DNA of 40,754 nt, taken from the UHGV virus genome UHGV-1474357; one strand, written 5' to 3'. Every line of letters begins with the position of its first letter. Positions within the stretch are counted from its first letter, which is position 1. This DNA is from a virus. The position numbers were made by a program, and so were the translations under genes. The notes beneath the pieces were generated by a model. That model saw only the letters and a program-made list of their open reading frames with translations. It was not told where the DNA came from and did not search any database. Below are positions 1 through 40,716 of the stretch, piece by piece.

Positions 1-80
1 TTATCAATGAAGTGAACGGTATTTCCCGCGTGGTGTATGACATCAGCGGCAAGCCACCAGCGACTATTGAGTGGGAATGA
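1..80 (+). CDS. guaA: 3' end of host gene (5' truncated by window); translation ends ...INEVNGISRVVYDISGKPPATIEWE*, recognised as GMP synthase C-terminus
   Basis: In-frame translation of 3-80 ending at TGA 78-80; C-terminal peptide recalled from memory as GuaA, not searched. Stop codon lies inside the att repeat. Confidence 0.7.
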   Translation, partial: INEVNGISRVVYDISGKPPATIEWE

Positions 81-82
81 TT
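66..82. repeat. attL core, 17-bp direct repeat ATTGAGTGGGAATGATT
   Basis: Exact 17-bp match to 40700-40716; lies just upstream of the integrase gene and overlaps the guaA stop codon. Confidence 0.8.
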
Positions 83-272: not shown

Positions 273-1529
273 GTGCTTACCGATACAAAATTAAAAAACC
301 TCAAGCCGCAGGACAAACTGTACAAGGTCTCCGATCGTGACGGGCTGTATGTAGCTGTGCTTACGTCAGGCACGGTCTCGTTTCGCTATGACTACCGTAT
401 CAACGGTCGCCGCGAAACACTGGTAATCGGGCAGTATGGGCGTGACGGTATCAGCCTGGCAGAAGCGCGAGAAGAACTGATTGCTGCAAAGAAGCTGCTT
501 AAAGCAGGCCAGTCACCGGCTGCGGCTAAACGTGACGGTATTAAAAAGATTCGTGGTGCCGAGACGTTTGCGGTACATACCGACAGTTATATGAAACACG
601 TCATCCTGGCTGACAGTACCCGCGCAATGAAGCAGGCGGTGATCGACCGTGACATACTTCCGGTTCTTGGCAACAAAATGATGGCTGAAATTACCACATC
701 AATGGTTCGTGATTTGTGTGACCGGATTGTCGAACGCGGTGGTCGGGCAACAGCAGTACAGGCCAGGGAGATCATCAGCAGCGTATACCGTCACGCCAAT
801 GACCGTGGTCATGGTTTGTTTAATCCTGCGGCTGACATTAAACCTTCGTCTATCGCCATATTTAAACCACGAGAGCGAACACTGACACCAGAAGAAATTG
901 GCCTGTTCTTCCGCACGCTGGATGCCATTGGTGCTATGGGCACTATGAAAATGGCTTTAAAGCTGGTGCTTATCACCATGGTTCGTAAGGGAGAATTCAC
1001 CAATGCAACGTGGGATGAAATAGATTTTAAAAAATGGACATGGACAATTCCTTCAGACCGCATGAAGGGAAGTCGGGCGCACGTTATTTACCTGCCTAAA
1101 CAGGCACAGGATATATTAGTCGGGTTGCAGATGTGCGCTGGTGGAAGTGAATATCTGGTTCCTGGTCGTTACAATTTCCGGAAGCCATTATCTAATGCCG
1201 CGCTGAACTCTCTGATCGACAGAACGGTGAAAATAATAAATGAAGATGGTGAGCATATTCAGGATTTTACTGTACATGATATGCGCCGTACAGCCAGTAC
1301 ATTGTTGCATGAGGCTGGTTATCCTTCAGACTGGATTGAAAAGGCTCTGGCACACGAGCAGAAAGGTGTGCGCGCCGTATATAACAAAGCGGAATACGCC
1401 AGACAGCGCGCCTACATGTTGCAGCAGTGGGCCGATATGATTGATTCCTGGATTAACGGGGAGCATACGGATCTGATTCCGTTCTCCCCGTCGAAGTTTG
1501 AGAAGTGGATGGAAGACAGTAATAAATAA
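273..1529 (+). CDS. int: Tyrosine site-specific integrase (GTG start)
   Basis: 418-aa ORF; N-terminus LTDTKLKNLKPQDKLYKVSDRDGLYVAV typical of P4/lambda-type integrase arm-binding domain; C-terminal HxxR...Y catalytic-type region (HDMRRTASTLL...YNKAEYARQRAYMLQQW); adjacent to attL. Confidence 0.93.
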   Translation: MLTDTKLKNLKPQDKLYKVSDRDGLYVAVLTSGTVSFRYDYRINGRRETLVIGQYGRDGISLAEAREELIAAKKLLKAGQSPAAAKRDGIKKIRGAETFAVHTDSYMKHVILADSTRAMKQAVIDRDILPVLGNKMMAEITTSMVRDLCDRIVERGGRATAVQAREIISSVYRHANDRGHGLFNPAADIKPSSIAIFKPRERTLTPEEIGLFFRTLDAIGAMGTMKMALKLVLITMVRKGEFTNATWDEIDFKKWTWTIPSDRMKGSRAHVIYLPKQAQDILVGLQMCAGGSEYLVPGRYNFRKPLSNAALNSLIDRTVKIINEDGEHIQDFTVHDMRRTASTLLHEAGYPSDWIEKALAHEQKGVRAVYNKAEYARQRAYMLQQWADMIDSWINGEHTDLIPFSPSKFEKWMEDSNK

Positions 1530-1531
1530 TT

Positions 1532-2191
1532 CTATCCTTCCTGGACTTTGGTAAGCGTCAGATTTCCGCAGAACACTGCGCCGGTGTCGATGTACATTTG
1601 GTTTGCATACACCAGTGGGTGATGTGCTGGCGTATGACCGAAGATGAACAAATCGGCACCGGTTATCTCCGAGACAATACCGTCCTGCGCGTCGCTAACC
1701 CGCTCACGATTCCATATCACCATTTCTTCCGGTACTGGCTTATCGAATGCGTATTCGTTGTGCGGGTAGTCTGCGTGGCAGATGACGACCTTCTTATTGC
1801 CGGTAACCAGTTCGATAATCATCGGGAGGTTGGTAACCTTTGGCAGAAGGTATTTGAGTTGCACATCCTGCTCAGAATCAAGTTGGTGCCACCATCCACC
1901 GCCGTTTGACATCCAATGTCCGAAACTTCCGCCGTTGACCAGTGCATCCAGCATCATCTGCTCATGGTTGCCACGAACAGCTCGGAACCACGGCATAGTA
2001 ATCAAATCCAGGCATTCGACGTTTTCAGCGCCGCGGTCAACAAGGTCACCAACGGAAATAAGCAAATCGCGCGCCGGGTCGAATGAAACTTTGTCGAGTT
2101 CGTTCATCAGCAGCGTGTAGCACCCATGCAGATCGCCGACGACGAAGATATTGCACCAGTCAGCGCCATTGATGCGTTGATATAGGTTCAT
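1532..2191 (-). CDS. Ser/Thr protein phosphatase (calcineurin-like metallophosphoesterase, lambda PP-like)
   Basis: Motifs [20 protein letters not shown]. Start set at internal ATG (MNLYQRING...) because ATG 2191-2189 overlaps the upstream TGA 2190-2188 (ATGA coupling). Confidence 0.85.
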
Positions 2192-2838
2192 GCTGCACGC
2201 TCCCGCCCCTGGTTGTCTGTTGGTGACAGCGGAGCATTGCTGAATGCATTTGTTAATCCGCCGATATCCAACGCGTATCCAGGGTGTAGTTGCACTGCCG
2301 GGTCTTCGCACTGATTACCCCAAACATCGAAGCCATGAGACGTCTGGCGGGCGAACAGTTCAATGCGAGAAACATCGCCTAATAATTGCACAAGTTTTTC
2401 ACGAACGATATCTGGCTTTCTTGAATGCTCAAGCCGCGGTGCGGTAAATGACTGAACGATCCCTGCATTAATGCGCGTAGGTAGTTTTCCCTTTACCGCA
2501 AACAGGCAATCTTCACTATTGGCGCGAGTCATGTGTCCCATACCCATAACCAGTTTATCTGGTTGTCGACTACCACATTTTATCCACGTGAAGCCCTTCA
2601 TCGTCATCAGACGGAATCCCCAGGCTTCAACAACTTTTAGTGCTTCGAGTGGTTGTGTTGGCACCCACCACATGGCCAACAGACAGTTTTCATCGGCCAA
2701 ATCCCACACAGGAAGGCGGCAGATATCCAGCACACTCATAACCGGATATTTAAAACCGGCACCGCGATTACCATCTGCGGCTTTGTCCCGGTATACCCAG
2801 GGTGGATCTGCATAGATTAGTGTGTATTTCTTAGTCAT
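2188..2838 (-). CDS. DNA N6-adenine methyltransferase, MT-A70 family
   Basis: Catalytic motif IYADPPW near N-terminus. ATG at 2838 chosen; an alternative GTG start at 2850 is possible. Confidence 0.8.
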
Positions 2839-3130
2839 AAACCACCCCACAACATCCTATGCCGCTATAGTCGCCACGGCGAAGGCCGTTACCTTTTGTG
2901 ATACATTGGTCCCTGCGAACCGCGATCCTTGCACGTTCAACATCACCAGAAGCAACATCCATACACTGAAGCCAAAGGTGAGCGGCAATGCGGAATTGCC
3001 CTTTTTTCTCTCTTTCAATCGCGCGTTTTTCGATCTCTATCGCCGCAGGAGTAACGGCGACAATCTTTGACGGACTGCGCATTGAAACCTTATTCATGTG
3101 ATATTTTTCAAGTCGGCTTAACTTTCTCAC
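2831..3130 (-). CDS. Hypothetical protein (99 aa, GTG start; alternative ATG at 3097)
   Basis: ORF co-oriented with the leftward operon; AGAGGG about 9 nt upstream of GTG 3130; no recognisable domain. Confidence 0.4.
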   Translation of the reverse strand: MRKLSRLEKYHMNKVSMRSPSKIVAVTPAAIEIEKRAIEREKKGQFRIAAHLWLQCMDVASGDVERARIAVRRDQCITKGNGLRRGDYSGIGCCGVVYD

Positions 3131-31184: not shown

Positions 31185-32036
31185 ATGAAAAAAATAAATT
31201 TGTTTTTTGGCATAGTGCTTTCAATAGTCTCTGTAAATCCTACAGCTGCCAGTTCATTGCAATGCAATAAGGATAACTTTGATGCATGCAAAACGTGTGA
31301 ACAATTATCAAAGGCTATCGACTTAAAAGAACCTAATCGTGGCGATTACTATAGAGGGGCTTTATGGAATGGGCTTTACGCCTCTTATGTAATTAATTGC
31401 CCTGTGGTTGCTGAGAAGTTACTGAGCCATGGTGCTATACCATCATATGGCGGATATATGGGGTCTATGGGGGCGGTTCTGACAGGAAAATGGCCTCATA
31501 ACAATGAATCAATAAATCTTTCATGGGCAGATTTGCTTATAAAACATGGATTTGATGTTAATAGGCATACGGGGAATTATAAATCAGCTACTGAAGTATG
31601 GGCTATAGATAAAAAACAGATTGAATATAAGTCAGTTTTTGACAAGTTAATTCAATCCAGCGAAGTAAAACCACTCGATCCTTCAAGAAATTTAGAATGG
31701 TGTGCGTCTGAAGGGTATCGCTCAGTTGTCGTTTATTCCCTTAACTCATGTATAGAAAATGCTATAAAACGTTTGGATGATGGTGTTTCTTCAGCGTCTG
31801 ATATTTCATCAGCAGCCGTAAATTCCTGTACTAGCGATGTAGAAAATTTCAATAAGCATTTGGCATGCAAAGCAGCTGTTAAAGAAAACTCTGATAAAGA
31901 GAGAAGCGACGTTTACCAGTTATTAACCAGTGATAGTCAAATGAATAAAAATGTTATTGATATGCTGAAGGAAAGAAATATTGAAACGGTTCTTGAATTT
32001 AGAGCTGAAAATCGATCAGCGAAAACTGCACAGTGA
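31185..32036 (+). CDS. Secreted protein with ankyrin-like repeats (AT-rich cargo gene)
   Basis: N-terminal signal peptide (MKKINLFFGIVLSIVSVNPTAAS); repeat-like segments LLSHGAIPS and LLIKHGFDVNRHTGN; clearly lower GC than flanking virion genes; strong terminator follows. Confidence 0.55.
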   Translation: MKKINLFFGIVLSIVSVNPTAASSLQCNKDNFDACKTCEQLSKAIDLKEPNRGDYYRGALWNGLYASYVINCPVVAEKLLSHGAIPSYGGYMGSMGAVLTGKWPHNNESINLSWADLLIKHGFDVNRHTGNYKSATEVWAIDKKQIEYKSVFDKLIQSSEVKPLDPSRNLEWCASEGYRSVVVYSLNSCIENAIKRLDDGVSSASDISSAAVNSCTSDVENFNKHLACKAAVKENSDKERSDVYQLLTSDSQMNKNVIDMLKERNIETVLEFRAENRSAKTAQ

Positions 32037-34161: not shown

Positions 34162-34890
34162 ATGGAAGTTTTCTGGATAGTTGTTGGTGTGGTTGCGGTG
34201 ATTATTTACGTTATCAACCAGAACAAGACTAAGATCTCTGATCGTACGGTCGTTAATCATAACAAAACGATAAAGACCGAAGATGGGGAGATAACGATTA
34301 ATCGTACACAGGTGATAGAACACACCTCTACTCAGTTTCAAAAAACTGGAGGTAATGCGCCTAATATTTCCGCACCTCCTGCTTATGATAGTGCGGTAAT
34401 CCAGACATATTATAAACAGCAGGAGTTAGCAAAAGAGAGGCAACTGATTCAGCCAAAGCCGTTTACAGCTGAGCTTCCACCTGGAGTGTCAACGCGTCCG
34501 GCATATCATGGAAGATTCCCTGGTGATGACATATCGTCTCAGTCATCTAAAAAAGCACCTCAGGCAGTATCAGAGCCAGCAAGAATACCTTCTGTATCGC
34601 CGCCAAAAGAAGAATCAGCTAACAGAGTTTCAAGTGGTAGCAAGCAGTGCTTGCGATGCAGAATAAACCTACCATATGAAAAATTCAGGAAATCGTCAAA
34701 AAATCCAGATGGATTGACTAAGTGGTGTGCAAGGTGTCTCGATGGCCCAAAGAATACACGCCATATGAAGTGGTGCCCAATTTGTAATGTCCGCAGAAAA
34801 CGAACAAGCTTTTACCCTAATAATCAAAATGCGGATGGCTTAATGGCATGGTGCAAAACGTGCTGGGACGAGCACAAAGCGAAACGATAG
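34162..34890 (+). CDS. Membrane-anchored protein with repeated zinc-ribbon-like motifs
   Basis: N-terminal TM helix (VFWIVVGVVAVIIYVI); C-terminal repeats of C-x2-C...NPDGL..WC..C (CLRCRINLPYEKFRKSSKNPDGLTKWCARC; CPICNVRRKRTSFYPNNQNADGLMAWCKTC); AT-rich; bidirectional terminator follows. Confidence 0.6.
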   Translation: MEVFWIVVGVVAVIIYVINQNKTKISDRTVVNHNKTIKTEDGEITINRTQVIEHTSTQFQKTGGNAPNISAPPAYDSAVIQTYYKQQELAKERQLIQPKPFTAELPPGVSTRPAYHGRFPGDDISSQSSKKAPQAVSEPARIPSVSPPKEESANRVSSGSKQCLRCRINLPYEKFRKSSKNPDGLTKWCARCLDGPKNTRHMKWCPICNVRRKRTSFYPNNQNADGLMAWCKTCWDEHKAKR

Positions 34891-35261: not shown

Positions 35262-35365
35262 TATCTATTGGTATTTACAGTCTTTTTATCCATATATGGT
35301 TTTTCAGGTAATAGAATAACCAGATATGCGGCGCAACGGGTGCTGCGACTATCTGGAGATTTAAC

Positions 35366-38300
35366 ATGACGGTCTCAACCGAAGTTGACCACAACGAATA
35401 CACCGGTAACGGCGTTACGACATCGTTTCCGTATACTTTTCGAATTTTCAGAAAATCAGACCTGGTTGTTCAGGTGTCTGACCTGAACGGGAACGTAACA
35501 GAATTGGTCCTGGATACCGGTTATACGGTAACTGGGGCGGGCACTTATAGTGGCGGTTCTGTGGTTCTTCCGTCTCCGCTTGCTACTGGATGGCGAATTA
35601 CGATAGATCGTGTGCTTGATGTAGTGCAGGACACAGACCTTCGCAATCAGGGAAAATTTTTCCCCGAAGTGCATGAAGATGCCTTTGACTACCTGACGAT
35701 GCTGATCCAGCAATGTTTTGGGTGGTTCAGACGTGCATTGATGAAACCATCTTTGCTTGCAAAATATTACGATGCAAAGCAAAACAAAATTTCTAACCTT
35801 GCAGATCCATCATTTGAGCAGGACGCTGTAAATAATCGCTCAATGCGTAATTATGTCGATGCTGCAATCGCCGGAGTTGTTGGTGGTTTTGGTTGGTTTA
35901 TTCAGTATGGTTCTGGGGCTGTGTACCGAACGTTCCAGGATAAAATGCGTGATGCTATTAGCCCCAAAGATTTTGGAGCTGTTGGTGATGGTATAAATGA
36001 CGATTCCACTGCAATAAGCGCGTGCCTTGAAGCCTCATCTCCAGGTTATAAAATTGACGGATTAGGGCTTACTTTTAAAGTATCAACTCTTCCGGATGTC
36101 AGTCGATTTAAAAATGCTCGTTTTTTATTTGAGAGAATACCGGGCCAGCCTCTTTTTTATGCTTCTGAAGATTTTATCCAGGGAGAGTTATTTAAAATTA
36201 CAGATACACCGTGGTACAACGCCTGGACGCAGGATAAAACGTTTGTATATGACAATGTCATCTATGCGCCTTTTATGGCTGGAGACCGCCATGGTGTAAA
36301 TAACCTCCATGTTGCATGGGTTCGCTCAGGAGATGACGGGAAGACCTGGACAACGCCGGAATGGCTTACAGATTTACATGAAAACTATCCCACAGTTAAC
36401 TATCACTGCATGAGTATGGGGGTTGTCAGAAATCGCCTTTTTGCTGTAATTGAGACGCGGACCGTGAGAGGAAATAAACTGCAGGTTGCAGAGTTGTGGG
36501 ATCGCCCAATGAGTCGCAGCCTTCGCGTTTATGGTGGTATAACGAAAGCAGCAAATCAGCAAGTCGCTTATATTCGCATTACTGATCACGGATTATTTGC
36601 TGGTGATTTTGTCAACTTCTCAAACTCTGGTGTTACAGGTGTTACCGGGAATATGACGGTGACTACTGTTATTGATAAAAATACCTTTACAGTTACGACG
36701 CAAAATACCCAGGATGTGGATCAGAATAACGAGGGTAGATACTGGAGTTTTGGCACATCATTTCACTCGTCACCATGGAGAAAAACCAGTCTTGGAACTA
36801 TTCCTTCTTTTGTTGACGGAAGCACTCCTGTTACTGAGATTCACAGTTTTGCGACGATTAGCGATAACAGTTTTGCTGTTGGCTACCATAATGGTGATAT
36901 TGGTCCACGCGAGCTTGGGATACTCTATTTCTCTGATGCTTTCGGTTCTCCTGGTAGCTTTGTTCGCAGACGCATACCTGTAGAATATGAGGCGAATGCA
37001 TCTGAGCCATGTGTAAAATATTATGATGGCATTCTGTATCTGACGACCAGGGGGACATTAAGTACTCAACCCGGTAGTTCATTGCACAGAAGCTCTGATT
37101 TAGGTACATCATGGAATTCTCTTCGCTTCCCAAATAATGTTCATCACTCAAACCTTCCTTTTGCCAAAGTTGGCGATGAGCTGATTATTTTTGGCAGTGA
37201 GCGCGCATTTGGTGAGTGGGAAGGAGGAGAACCTGATAACCGTTATGCAGGAAATTATCCAAGAACATTTATGACCAGAGTTAACGTCAATGAGTGGAGT
37301 CTGGATAATGTAGAGTGGGTTAATGTTACTGATCAGATTTATCAGGGCGGAATAGTTAACTCTGCGGTTGGTGTTGGTTCAGTTTGTATCAAAGACAACT
37401 GGCTGTACTACATTTTCGGTGGGGAAGACTTTCTAAACCCATGGAGCATAGGGGATAACAACAGAAAATATCCTTATGTTCACGATGGTCACCCGGCTGA
37501 TTTGTATTGTTTCAGGGTGAAAATTAAACAGGAAGAATTTGTTTCAAGGGATTTTGTCTACGGAGCCACTCCTAACAGAACGCTTCCTACTTTTATGTCG
37601 ACGTCAGGCGTGAGGACGGTTCCTGTACCCGTTGATTTCACAGATGATGTTGCCGTCCAGTCACTGACTGTCCATGCAGGTACATCAGGACAAGTTCGCG
37701 CGGAAGTCAAACTTGAGGGTAATTACGCCATTATTGCGAAGAAAGTACCGTCTGATGATGTTACCGCTCAGAGATTAATCGTTAGCGGCGGTGAAACAAC
37801 GTCTTCAGCAGATGGTGCAATGATAACGTTGCATGGTTCCGTAAGCAGTACTCCACGTCGCGCGGTATATAACGCACTCGAACATCTTTTTGAGAACGGA
37901 GATGTTAAACCTTATCTTGATAATGTAAATGCTCTTGGTGGTCCGGGAAACAGGTTCTCGACAGTTTATCTTGGCTCCAATCCTGTGGTTACCAGTGACG
38001 GAACATTAAAGACAGAGCCGGTCTCTCCTGACGAAGCATTGCTGGATGCCTGGGGTGACGTCAGGTATATCGCTTATAAATGGCTGAACGCTGTCGCTAT
38101 AAAGGGGGAAGAAGGGGCGAGGATACATCATGGTGTAATCGCGCAGCAACTTCGTGATGTTCTTATTTCTCACGGACTCATGGAAGAAGAAAGCACAACA
38201 TGCCGCTATGCCTTTCTTTGCTATGACGATTATCCCGCAGTATATGATGACGTCATTACTGGCCAAAGGGAAATGCCGCTGACTGATAATGAAGGGAGCA

Positions 38301-38485
38301 TCATTGTTGATGAGGATGATAATCCAGTGATGGTAATGGAAGACATCATTGAGCGCGTTGAAATAACGCCAGCAGGATCTAGATGGGGGGTCAGACCTGA
38401 TCTCTTATTCTATATCGAGGCGGCATGGCAGCGCAGAGAAATGGATAAGATAAAAGAGCGGATTCAGTCTCTGGAAGAACGTTAA
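35366..38485 (+). CDS. Tailspike/tail fibre: T7 gp17-like N-terminal adaptor, sialidase-fold domain with Asp-boxes, C-terminal intramolecular chaperone domain; endosialidase-like
   Basis: 1039 aa; N-terminal conserved particle-binding pattern (FPYTF...DLRNQGKFFPEVHEDAFDYL); Asp-box motifs SGDDGKTW and SSDLGTSW; C-terminal segment (GVIAQQLRDVLISHGLMEEESTTCRYAFLCYDDY...) typical of auto-cleaving chaperone domains; GGAG SD. Confidence 0.8.
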   Translation: MTVSTEVDHNEYTGNGVTTSFPYTFRIFRKSDLVVQVSDLNGNVTELVLDTGYTVTGAGTYSGGSVVLPSPLATGWRITIDRVLDVVQDTDLRNQGKFFPEVHEDAFDYLTMLIQQCFGWFRRALMKPSLLAKYYDAKQNKISNLADPSFEQDAVNNRSMRNYVDAAIAGVVGGFGWFIQYGSGAVYRTFQDKMRDAISPKDFGAVGDGINDDSTAISACLEASSPGYKIDGLGLTFKVSTLPDVSRFKNARFLFERIPGQPLFYASEDFIQGELFKITDTPWYNAWTQDKTFVYDNVIYAPFMAGDRHGVNNLHVAWVRSGDDGKTWTTPEWLTDLHENYPTVNYHCMSMGVVRNRLFAVIETRTVRGNKLQVAELWDRPMSRSLRVYGGITKAANQQVAYIRITDHGLFAGDFVNFSNSGVTGVTGNMTVTTVIDKNTFTVTTQNTQDVDQNNEGRYWSFGTSFHSSPWRKTSLGTIPSFVDGSTPVTEIHSFATISDNSFAVGYHNGDIGPRELGILYFSDAFGSPGSFVRRRIPVEYEANASEPCVKYYDGILYLTTRGTLSTQPGSSLHRSSDLGTSWNSLRFPNNVHHSNLPFAKVGDELIIFGSERAFGEWEGGEPDNRYAGNYPRTFMTRVNVNEWSLDNVEWVNVTDQIYQGGIVNSAVGVGSVCIKDNWLYYIFGGEDFLNPWSIGDNNRKYPYVHDGHPADLYCFRVKIKQEEFVSRDFVYGATPNRTLPTFMSTSGVRTVPVPVDFTDDVAVQSLTVHAGTSGQVRAEVKLEGNYAIIAKKVPSDDVTAQRLIVSGGETTSSADGAMITLHGSVSSTPRRAVYNALEHLFENGDVKPYLDNVNALGGPGNRFSTVYLGSNPVVTSDGTLKTEPVSPDEALLDAWGDVRYIAYKWLNAVAIKGEEGARIHHGVIAQQLRDVLISHGLMEEESTTCRYAFLCYDDYPAVYDDVITGQREMPLTDNEGSIIVDEDDNPVMVMEDIIERVEITPAGSRWGVRPDLLFYIEAAWQRREMDKIKERIQSLEER

Positions 38486-38492
38486 AAAAAAG

Positions 38493-38512
38493 CCCGCAAT
38501 ATTTTGCGGGTA
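38493..38512. terminator. Hairpin after tailspike gene (GCCCGCAA-TATT-TTGCGGGT), possible terminator
   Basis: 8-bp stem preceded by an A-run on the plus strand; no T-run follows on the plus strand, so activity is uncertain. Confidence 0.35.
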
Positions 38513-40699: not shown

Positions 40700-40716
40700 A
40701 TTGAGTGGGAATGATT
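40700..40716. repeat. attR core, 17-bp direct repeat ATTGAGTGGGAATGATT
   Basis: Exact match to 66-82; followed by a sequence resembling the native host terminator. Confidence 0.8.

Follow-up and report, generated by a model that had tools for sequence, protein, structure and literature searches.

What the protein encoded near the right end of this prophage recognises on the bacterial surface, what it does to that receptor, how it is held on the virion and where its parts came from are the questions raised by the gene at positions 35366..38485 of UHGV virus genome UHGV-1474357, a stretch of 40,754 nucleotides that was analysed whole and is referred to here as the window. The first-pass annotation had read the gene as a tailspike joining a T7 gp17-type adaptor, a sialidase-like Asp-box domain and a C-terminal auto-chaperone, with specificity for a polysialic acid capsule of the K1 type. 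The protein is almost certainly, as judged from its homologies, the receptor-binding and receptor-destroying spike of a Uetakevirus that has integrated at the guaA 3' end of an Escherichia coli with a K1 capsule. The reading as a K1 endosialidase tailspike is thereby supported as correct but already known, because phage ZX5 has a published gene that is 99.7% identical and of the same three-part architecture (PMC9782041).

The gene and the signals at its two ends are the following:
35366..38485, plus strand: whole endosialidase (endo-N-acetylneuraminidase) tailspike gene, taken from the ORF list, 1039 aa plus stop, ATG start
35355..35359, plus strand: Shine-Dalgarno-like GGAGA, 6 nt 5' of the tailspike ATG, read from the sequence
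38493..38510, no strand assigned: GC-rich, terminator-like hairpin directly 3' of the tailspike stop codon

The ORF is matched end to end by PHROG 1171, 'tail spike protein' (E = 0), and a search of NCBIfam with the tailspike returned no meaningful family. The hairpin shows its T-run on the minus-strand side and has an A-run before it on the plus strand, and at the equivalent place epsilon15 carries an annotated rho-independent terminator. The gene lies upstream of genes for a membrane protein, a holin, a GH19 endolysin and a DUF2514 protein, a position that it shares with its counterparts in epsilon15 and phiV10. The backbone around it is 97% identical to the Uetakevirus phages PAS61, phiv142-3 and ZX5 and is related to phiV10 and epsilon15, its structural module being 98% identical to the former and 77% to the latter. 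An ORF of integrase size is found at 273..1529, and a 17-bp att core, ATGAGTGGGAATGATT, preceded by AT (ATTGAGTGGGAATGATT), occurs at 66-82 and again at 40700-40716, where chance would be expected to give no repeat of this length in the window. Both att repeats are intact and the structural ORFs are full-length. These observations confirm that the window prophage is a temperate podovirus of the epsilon15/phiV10-like group (Uetakevirus), and the earlier proposal that the architecture of K1-phage endosialidases is here carried by a temperate phage was borne out. Flanking DNA outside the prophage amounts to only ~65 bp and ~38 bp within the window.

At the N-terminus, two segments precede the enzyme:
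35366..35860, plus strand: particle-binding (adaptor) domain of the epsilon15 gp20 type, aa 1-165, by homology to epsilon15 gp20
35861..35977, plus strand: linker or neck between adaptor and enzyme, aa 166-204, from pairwise and three-way alignments, still common to the phiv142-3 tail fibre

The particle-attachment pattern noted at this end was upheld, since aa 1-165 are 70.9% identical to aa 1-161 of epsilon15 gp20 (E 2e-66). The N-terminus is also 67.9% identical to that of phiV10 and, over aa 1-227, 91.6% identical to that of phiv142-3, and a solved homologue (28lx/8ck1) matches the adaptor domain with an E-value of 2.9e-33. An adaptor of the epsilon15 gp20 kind fits the Uetakevirus backbone of the prophage. 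The proposed relationship to T7 gp17 stood as distant homology and failed as direct membership. A profile built from 13 sequences of the adaptor family aligns end to end with the T7 gp17 N-terminus (7boz, E 4.5e-5; profile 11-157 on gp17 10-151) and also matches 8e4g/8dsp in the PDB at about 1e-6, while PF03906 (Phage_T7_tail) is matched by 11 of the 13 family members, the best at 9.4e-11, and in the publication on ZX5 the domain is described as T7-like (PMC9782041). These matches are what could be expected if the domain truly belonged to the T7 gp17 family, in which case the spike would be attached to a T7-type tail through the gp11/gp12 interface as in K1F, yet this stronger version appears rather improbable. 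The N-terminus of the protein itself scores only 16-16.8 bits against PF03906, under the Pfam cutoff of 25.2 and over profile positions 123-149 only, and a Pfam search with the whole tailspike gave no PF03906 match at E <= 1. Likewise, blastp of the tailspike against T7 gp17 was not significant (E = 0.3) and the K1F N-terminus could not be aligned with that of the tailspike. Moreover, the genome is that of a Uetakevirus with integrase and att sites and not of an Autographiviridae member; given 71% identity to epsilon15 gp20, common fold ancestry with the T7 domain is likely, but the docking partner would be an epsilon15-type tail. The adaptor is thus likely a distant homologue of T7 gp17 whose immediate family is that of epsilon15 gp20, and its homology to the phage-binding domain of the latter suggests that this N-terminal stretch of ~165 aa attaches the spike trimer to the tail.

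The enzymatic part of the protein extends from aa 205 to aa 876 and comprises:
35978..36178, plus strand: endosialidase N-terminal extension (End_N_terminal), aa 205-271, PF12218, E 5.8e-32; holds the 5' recombination junction
36179..37528, plus strand: catalytic six-bladed beta-propeller (End_beta_propel), aa 272-721, PF12217, E 1.7e-232, profile 1-367 of 367
36326..36349, plus strand: Asp-box 1, SGDDGKTW, aa 321-328, found by regular expression and aligned with endoNF SGDDGQTW
36512..36760, plus strand: beta-barrel inserted in the propeller (End_beta_barrel), aa 383-465, PF12195, E 3.2e-46
37091..37114, plus strand: Asp-box 2, SSDLGTSW, aa 576-583, found by regular expression and aligned with endoNF SRDIGQTW
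37529..37993, plus strand: stalk (End_tail_spike), aa 722-876, PF12219, E 1.7e-77

All five endosialidase domains of Pfam (PF12218, PF12217, PF12195, PF12219 and, further on, PF13884) are present far over threshold, in keeping with a bacteriophage endosialidase (endo-N-acetylneuraminidase), an activity that we take to correspond to CAZy family GH58. The expression S.D.G..W has exactly two matches in the tailspike, which are the two Asp-boxes that had been pointed out from the sequence, and their alignment with the endoNF motifs in the PDB alignment indicates that they occupy conserved positions and did not arise by chance. Comparison with the endoNF structures, which the first-pass annotation had proposed as a check, gave matches to 1v0e and 3gvl over aa 205-876 with E = 0, and the phi92-type endosialidase 4hiz was matched as well (E 2.3e-270). 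The catalytic residues of K1F endoNF are H350, R549, E581, R596 and R647 (PMC12632334), and they correspond to H309, R515, E547, R562 and R613 of the tailspike, all identical, so that the sialidase-like domain that had been claimed is recovered together with its catalytic residues. By domain, identity to K1F is 70% in the propeller, 67% in the beta-barrel and 56% in the stalk. The beta-barrel of endoNF is a polysialic acid binding site. A further site lies in the stalk, where R837, S848 and Q853 of endoNF are presumably the residues involved; the first two are conserved in the tailspike as R803 and S814 and the third is replaced by M819, suggesting that processivity or binding may differ from those of endoNF.

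The enzyme is followed by one more domain:
37994..38482, plus strand: intramolecular chaperone (peptidase S74), aa 877-1039, predicted self-cleavage at S877 with partner K882

The auto-chaperone that had been recognised at the C-terminus is confirmed by a Pfam match to PF13884 (Peptidase_S74) at aa 877-937 (E 1.7e-10) and by an alignment of aa 757-1038 with the K1F chaperone structure 3gw6 (E 1.5e-93). In the endoNF chaperone S911 and K916 form what we take to be the pair of cleavage serine and partner lysine, and both are conserved as S877 and K882. On the grounds of this homology and of the conserved Ser/Lys pair, aa 877-1039 would assist folding of the trimer and would then be removed by a cut at Ser877.

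With regard to the substrate, the closest enzyme with a known activity is SiaK1 of CUS-3 (CP000711), which is 95.2% identical in amino acids, without gaps, over aa 193-1039, and whose GenBank record annotates endo-alpha-sialidase activity by direct assay, citing PMID 16689790 (Stummeyer et al. 2006). Its 95% identity to this assayed enzyme, together with the conservation of all known catalytic residues, suggests that the region formed by the propeller, the inserted barrel and the stalk (aa 205-876) is an endo-acting enzyme that binds alpha-2,8-polysialic acid and cuts within the chain, by which the virion would make its way across the K1 capsule and reach the outer membrane. The K1 (polysialic acid) specificity predicted earlier is supported by the resemblance to the CUS-3 enzyme and by ZX5, which forms plaques on an O87:H52:K1 strain and can also lysogenise it, integrating at guaA (PMC9782041).

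The prediction of an encapsulated host was also sustained by the genomes in which the gene resides. It is carried by 72 complete E. coli genomes, under the RefSeq name endosialidase, and the carrier IAI39 has a complete K1 locus (kpsFEDUCS, neuS-E-C-A-B-D and kpsTM). The association with neuS, which is present in 329 of 5426 complete genomes, was assessed by hypergeometric tests on the overlaps between genome lists that were sampled and not exhaustive: 6 of 25 listed carriers were among 60 listed neuS-positive genomes (P = 2e-7), as were 9 of 60 sampled endosialidase-positive genomes (P = 1.3e-8), both values being calculated under independence. In the sampled carriers neuS is thus strongly enriched, and overlaps of this size would be expected were every carrier K1. 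The carriers that could be named, CE10 O7:K1, APEC O1:K1:H7, UTI89 and NU14, belong to K1 strains, and in those carriers that were checked neuS matches the IAI39 allele with 100% identity. The tailspike gene is a reliable marker of a host that is K1-encapsulated now or was so recently. As to modification of the capsule by the prophage, the window holds no AAGACTC heptad array of the kind that would denote neuO-type cargo, the ten ORFs neighbouring the spike gave no acyltransferase or other informative Pfam match and PADLOC gave no defence matches, so that such a role is unsupported. An influence of the prophage on capsule-dependent susceptibility to phages, as had been suggested earlier, would be conjectural.

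These host data bear on a second alternative, namely that the true target is another sialic-acid polymer and not plain K1, be it K92, in which alpha-2,8 and alpha-2,9 linkages alternate, or polysialic acid with heavy O-acetylation. The replacement of Q853 by methionine and a stalk only 56% identical to that of endoNF would be compatible with such a shift, and deep mutational scanning of K1F has indicated that loops of the stalk and the barrel adjust how the phage discriminates between K1 host strains (PMC12632334). Nevertheless, the catalytic and stalk regions are only a handful of residues away from CUS-3 SiaK1, which is a K1 enzyme, the host of ZX5 was typed K1 (PMC9782041), and the serotypes and neuS alleles of the carriers given above all agree with K1; a different polymer is accordingly very improbable. 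Equally slight is the chance that the spike only binds, or is an endosialidase relic that has lost its activity, within a prophage no longer functional, so that polysialic acid would not be cleaved nor infectious particles formed. It is true that the prophage in IAI39 is decayed by IS elements and that the gene itself is split by them in FY26, SF-088 and N32. In the window, however, the ORF is intact with its five catalytic residues, the att repeats on both sides of the prophage are undamaged and its structural ORFs are of full length. The 99.7% identical gene belongs, moreover, to the viable ZX5, for which plaques on a K1 host and spontaneous induction to 10^7 PFU/mL have been described (PMC9782041). 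The decay observed in some genomes such as IAI39 does mean that presence of the gene is no guarantee of a functional phage.

With a polysialic acid-cleaving spike as the preferred reading, there is still its origin to be accounted for, and here the relevant feature is:
36064..38456, plus strand: catalytic and chaperone cassette of ~2.4 kb, near-identical to CUS-3 siaK1, the horizontally exchanged module, with 18 nt differences

Megablast of the tailspike gene against CUS-3 gave 99.3% identity over gene nt 699-3091, with near-identity beginning at window position 36064. The gene is a mosaic in which a Uetakevirus-type adaptor is joined to a cassette near-identical to that of the P22-like CUS-3. 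Recombination between two parents, with the 5' end taken from phiv142-3 and the 3' end from CUS-3, was rejected as an exact description, given that in the alignment of representatives gene nt ~590-698 and the final ~45 nt match neither of them. The 5' junction (gene nt ~590-698), being unlike either sampled parent, hints at a third, unsampled donor. Both versions of the spike, the epsilon15-like and the CUS-3 type, apparently occur together in about 35 or more of 191 endosialidase-positive complete genomes. It can be speculated, though we regard it as doubtful, that the identity of the cassette across two unrelated podovirus lineages reflects gene conversion or exchange that is still going on between prophages residing together, K1 E. 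coli acting as a mixing vessel. If this were true, one receptor-destroying module would be passed among adaptors in real time. The co-residence figures might seed a small comparative study of prophage cassette exchange.

Among known systems, the nearest is vB_EcoP_ZX5, whose ORF7 (MW722083) is 99.7% identical in nucleotides over the full 3120 nt of the tailspike gene and which shares with the window prophage the Uetakevirus backbone and the 17-bp att core at guaA, its host being K1 (PMC9782041). The spike of ZX5 was described in a 2022 paper in Pathogens as a T7-like N-terminus followed by an endosialidase and an intramolecular chaperone, and lysogeny by this phage had no effect on the phenotypes tested (PMC9782041). 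The window prophage differs from ZX5 in its internal-virion-protein region, of which it has another variant, and on the 5' side of the spike it bears additional cargo ORFs (31185-32036, 34162-34890 and neighbours), ZX5 matching that half of the window only from about 32.2 kb onward. The combination of an epsilon15-like adaptor with an endosialidase has already been deposited in GenBank and published with ZX5. The practical value is limited.

CUS-3 and the window prophage are both temperate podoviruses of K1 E. coli, but CUS-3 belongs to Lederbergvirus and its spike has a head-binding N-terminus of the P22 gp9 type (aa 1-133), which has no counterpart in the tailspike, the alignment beginning at aa 193 of the latter; the window spike carries an epsilon15-type N-terminus instead. 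The final 14 aa of the two spikes differ, and in CUS-3 the spike gene is adjoined by neuO with its heptanucleotide repeats, whereas the window is without the neuO repeat. In the case of K1F, endoNF (1v0e, 3gvl, 3gw6) and the window spike have their domains in one order, beginning with the End_N_terminal extension and ending with the chaperone, at 62-63% identity over aa 196-1039, and the window spike differs from endoNF by a 7-aa insertion in the FVDGSTP region. The phage K1F itself is lytic and T7-like, and the N-terminus of its spike genuinely belongs to the T7 family (41% identity to T7 gp17, E 1e-19). The tailspikes of epsilon15 (gp20) and phiV10, finally, resemble the window spike in their N-terminal ~165 aa (68-71% identical), but their catalytic parts target O-antigen (that of epsilon15 being of the endorhamnosidase type) and are unrelated to endosialidase, and the O-antigen conversion genes found downstream of the spike in epsilon15 are absent from the window. 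Endosialidase tailspikes are useful reagents to detect or remove polysialic acid and a textbook case of modular host-range evolution, in which the window represents the catalytic cassette on a third, epsilon15-like type of adaptor, beside the T7-like one of K1F and the P22-like one of CUS-3.

The tailspike of this virus is an endosialidase of the kind carried by K1 phages, and the first-pass annotation, which had proposed this from the sequence and placed the ORF at exactly the position found here, is confirmed in its observation and supported in its interpretation, with the refinement that the adaptor is of the epsilon15 gp20 type. A Pfam search recovered the complete set of five endosialidase domains (amino acids and gene nucleotides are counted from the start of the ORF, other coordinates along the window):

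35366..38485 (+), tailspike ORF, ATG start, 1039 aa
6 nt upstream of the tailspike ATG (+), ribosome-binding site GGAGA, read from the sequence
aa 205-271, End_N_terminal (Pfam E 5.8e-32)
aa 272-721, End_beta_propel (Pfam E 1.7e-232)
aa 383-465, End_beta_barrel, inserted (Pfam E 3.2e-46)
aa 722-876, End_tail_spike (Pfam E 1.7e-77)
aa 877-937, Peptidase_S74, 'chaperone of endosialidase' (Pfam E 1.7e-10)
38493-38510, GC-rich hairpin 3' of the tailspike stop codon

Among solved-structure sequences, endoNF, the endosialidase of the lytic T7-like phage K1F, matched aa 205-876 (1v0e and 3gvl, E = 0), while its C-terminal chaperone domain (3gw6) matched aa 757-1038 (E 1.5e-93). In pairwise alignment the spike and the K1F protein are 62-63% identical over aa 196-1039, with 70% identity in the propeller. 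The auto-chaperone foreseen at the C-terminus is equally recognizable in single residues, as S911 and K916 of endoNF, which we take to be the chaperone cleavage serine and its partner lysine, are conserved as S877 and K882. The pattern S.D.G..W occurs twice, at SGDDGKTW (aa 321-328) and SSDLGTSW (aa 576-583), and since both line up with K1F endosialidase Asp-boxes in a PDB sequence alignment, these previously noticed motifs represent conserved positions and not chance occurrences. In a recent deep mutational scanning study of K1F, H350, R549, E581, R596 and R647 of the spike are named as key catalytic residues (PMC12632334), and all five are kept in the alignment, as H309, R515, E547, R562 and R613. 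The hairpin behind the gene has an A-run upstream and a T-run on the opposite strand, and only on the minus strand does it score as a terminator; it may work in both directions or mainly halt transcription from the lysis-gene side.

The N-terminal adaptor had been described as T7 gp17-type, a view that holds as distant homology but not for the immediate family. Over its first 165 aa the spike shares 70.9% identity with gp20 of Salmonella phage epsilon15 (E 2e-66), and over aa 1-227 it shares 91.6% with the phiv142-3 tail fibre. In a tblastn search of a phage collection, the matches to this module came from Uetakevirus phages, with more remote ones in BPP-1-like, Pelagibacter, Pseudomonas and Xanthomonas podophages and none in T7-like phages. 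By itself, the spike sequence fell short of membership in the T7 gp17 N-terminal domain family: PF03906 scored 16-16.8 bits, below the 25.2 cutoff, T7 gp17 gave E = 0.3 by blastp, and the K1F and spike N-termini did not align in pairwise comparison. On the other hand, in an alignment of 13 adaptor family sequences, 11 members matched PF03906 (best 9.4e-11), and the family profile aligned end to end with the T7 gp17 N-terminus 7boz (E 4.5e-5) and also matched the tail-fibre N-termini 8e4g and 8dsp (about 1e-6). Thus, 'T7 gp17-type' is correct as distant homology. The immediate family of the adaptor is that of epsilon15 gp20, the likeness to T7 being distant only.

From aa 193 to its end the spike aligns gap-free, at 95.2% identity, with SiaK1, the endosialidase of the P22-like prophage CUS-3 (Lederbergvirus), whereas CUS-3 aa 1-133 are P22-like and unrelated to the spike N-terminus. 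At the nucleotide level the gene is a mosaic:

Gene nt 1 to ~590, ~98% identical to phiv142-3
Gene nt ~590-698 (window 35955-36063), unlike both phiv142-3 and CUS-3
Gene nt 699-3091 (window 36064-38456), differing from CUS-3 at only 18 positions
Last ~45 nt, 14 aa (window 38441-38485), diverging again and matching neither CUS-3 nor phiv142-3

These matches indicate that a ~2.4-kb catalytic and chaperone cassette recently moved between the Lederbergvirus and Uetakevirus lineages and, as its flanks match neither CUS-3 nor phiv142-3, that the sampled phages are not direct parents of the mosaic. A third donor or an older divergence is implied behind the unmatched flanks. The stretch around FGAVGDGINDDSTAI (window 35918-36049, aa ~185-228) is reminiscent of the cap motif at the N-terminus of beta-helix depolymerases. 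It weakly matches the Sf6 tailspike, Pfam PF12708 and an alginate epimerase, and is found again in the phiv142-3 fibre, in its unrelated catalytic part. This conserved seam may be a swap point for different catalytic modules.

An encapsulated K1 host had been predicted, and several lines of evidence agree with this. The Uetakevirus phage vB_EcoP_ZX5 (MW722083), whose gene is 99.7% identical to the spike gene, has as its host strain YO1, of type O87:H52:K1 (PMC9782041). The full gene is present at 99.7-99.9% identity in 72 complete E. coli genomes, including CE10 (O7:K1), IAI39 and APEC O1:K1:H7 strains, and in IAI39 the pheV island was located along with a complete K1 locus in the order kpsFEDUCS, neuS (polysialyltransferase) and neuE, C, A, B and D, followed by kpsT and kpsM. 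neuS is present in 329 of 5426 complete genomes; with 60 of these neuS-positive genomes listed, association was tested by overlap of listed genomes: 6 of 25 listed spike carriers fell within these 60 (P = 2e-7; expected 0.28 if independent, 4.6 if all carriers were K1), as did 9 of 60 evenly sampled endosialidase-positive genomes (P = 1.3e-8; expected 0.66 and 10.9, respectively).

The phage is temperate, as anticipated. The 17-bp ATTGAGTGGGAATGATT forms a direct repeat at window 66-82 and 40700-40716 (chance expectation none) and is exactly the published att core of ZX5, which integrates at the guaA 3' end (PMC9782041). Within the window, this repeat delimits a complete ~40.6-kb Uetakevirus-type prophage with an integrase-sized ORF at 273..1529; host DNA accounts for just ~65 bp and ~38 bp on its two sides. 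Over its first 25 kb the window shares ~97% identity with the Uetakevirus phages PAS61, phiv142-3 and ZX5, and it is related there to phiV10 and epsilon15 as well. On the 3' side of the spike come two holin-family genes and the genes for a GH19 endolysin and a DUF2514 protein, an arrangement likewise found in epsilon15. The window contains no neuO-type heptad repeat, and the spike-neighbouring ORFs no acyltransferase or defence-system signature. Two further ORFs were characterized:

31185-32036 (+), 283-aa ORF of low GC content (38%), N-terminus signal-peptide-like, PHROG 6118 (function unassigned) end to end
34162-34890 (+), 242-aa ORF between antirepressor-like genes, PHROG 6762 (function unassigned)

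The former begins directly 3' of the gene for a 1129-aa internal virion protein, gave neither a Pfam nor a PADLOC match, lies in a region (window 25-32 kb) without a match in ZX5, and could represent a moron or encode secreted cargo. The latter has a hydrophobic segment at its N-terminus and two paired CxxC motifs of zinc-finger-like type at its C-terminus; endonuclease VII and Lar-like proteins match it more weakly through their zinc-binding ends, and Pfam Stc1 is sub-threshold; in IAI39 and ZX5 the antirepressor-tailspike interval lacks a gene of this size. The IAI39 prophage (NC_011750.1 2733512-2776631) is a decayed copy of the window prophage, in which the gene for a large virion protein is split by IS3-family elements, and IS elements and a group II intron lie just past the lysis genes; its endosialidase gene is still intact (99.8% identity).

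Neither this kind of spike nor the specific gene is new. ORF7 of ZX5 has been described with a T7-like N-terminal domain, an endosialidase middle and a C-terminal endosialidase intramolecular chaperone, and ZX5 lysogeny left growth, biofilm formation, serum resistance, adhesion and virulence unchanged (PMC9782041), while RefSeq names the product in the 72 carriers 'endosialidase catalytic beta-propeller domain-containing protein'. Among 5426 complete E. coli genomes, 191 contain the catalytic part with any adaptor (253 places, at most 4 per genome, almost all with identities of 99% or more), 154 the CUS-3-type 5' junction and 72 the epsilon15-type full gene. From these totals (154 + 72 - 191 = 35), both adaptor versions appear to reside together in approximately 35 or more genomes, and such near-identical cassettes are a possible substrate for gene conversion between prophages. 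One endosialidase module on two adaptors, T7-type in K1F and P22-type in CUS-3, has been reported before (Stummeyer et al. 2006, reviewed in PMC5380687); what is mildly new here is only how widely the cassette co-resides, and how nearly identical it is, between two prophage lineages.
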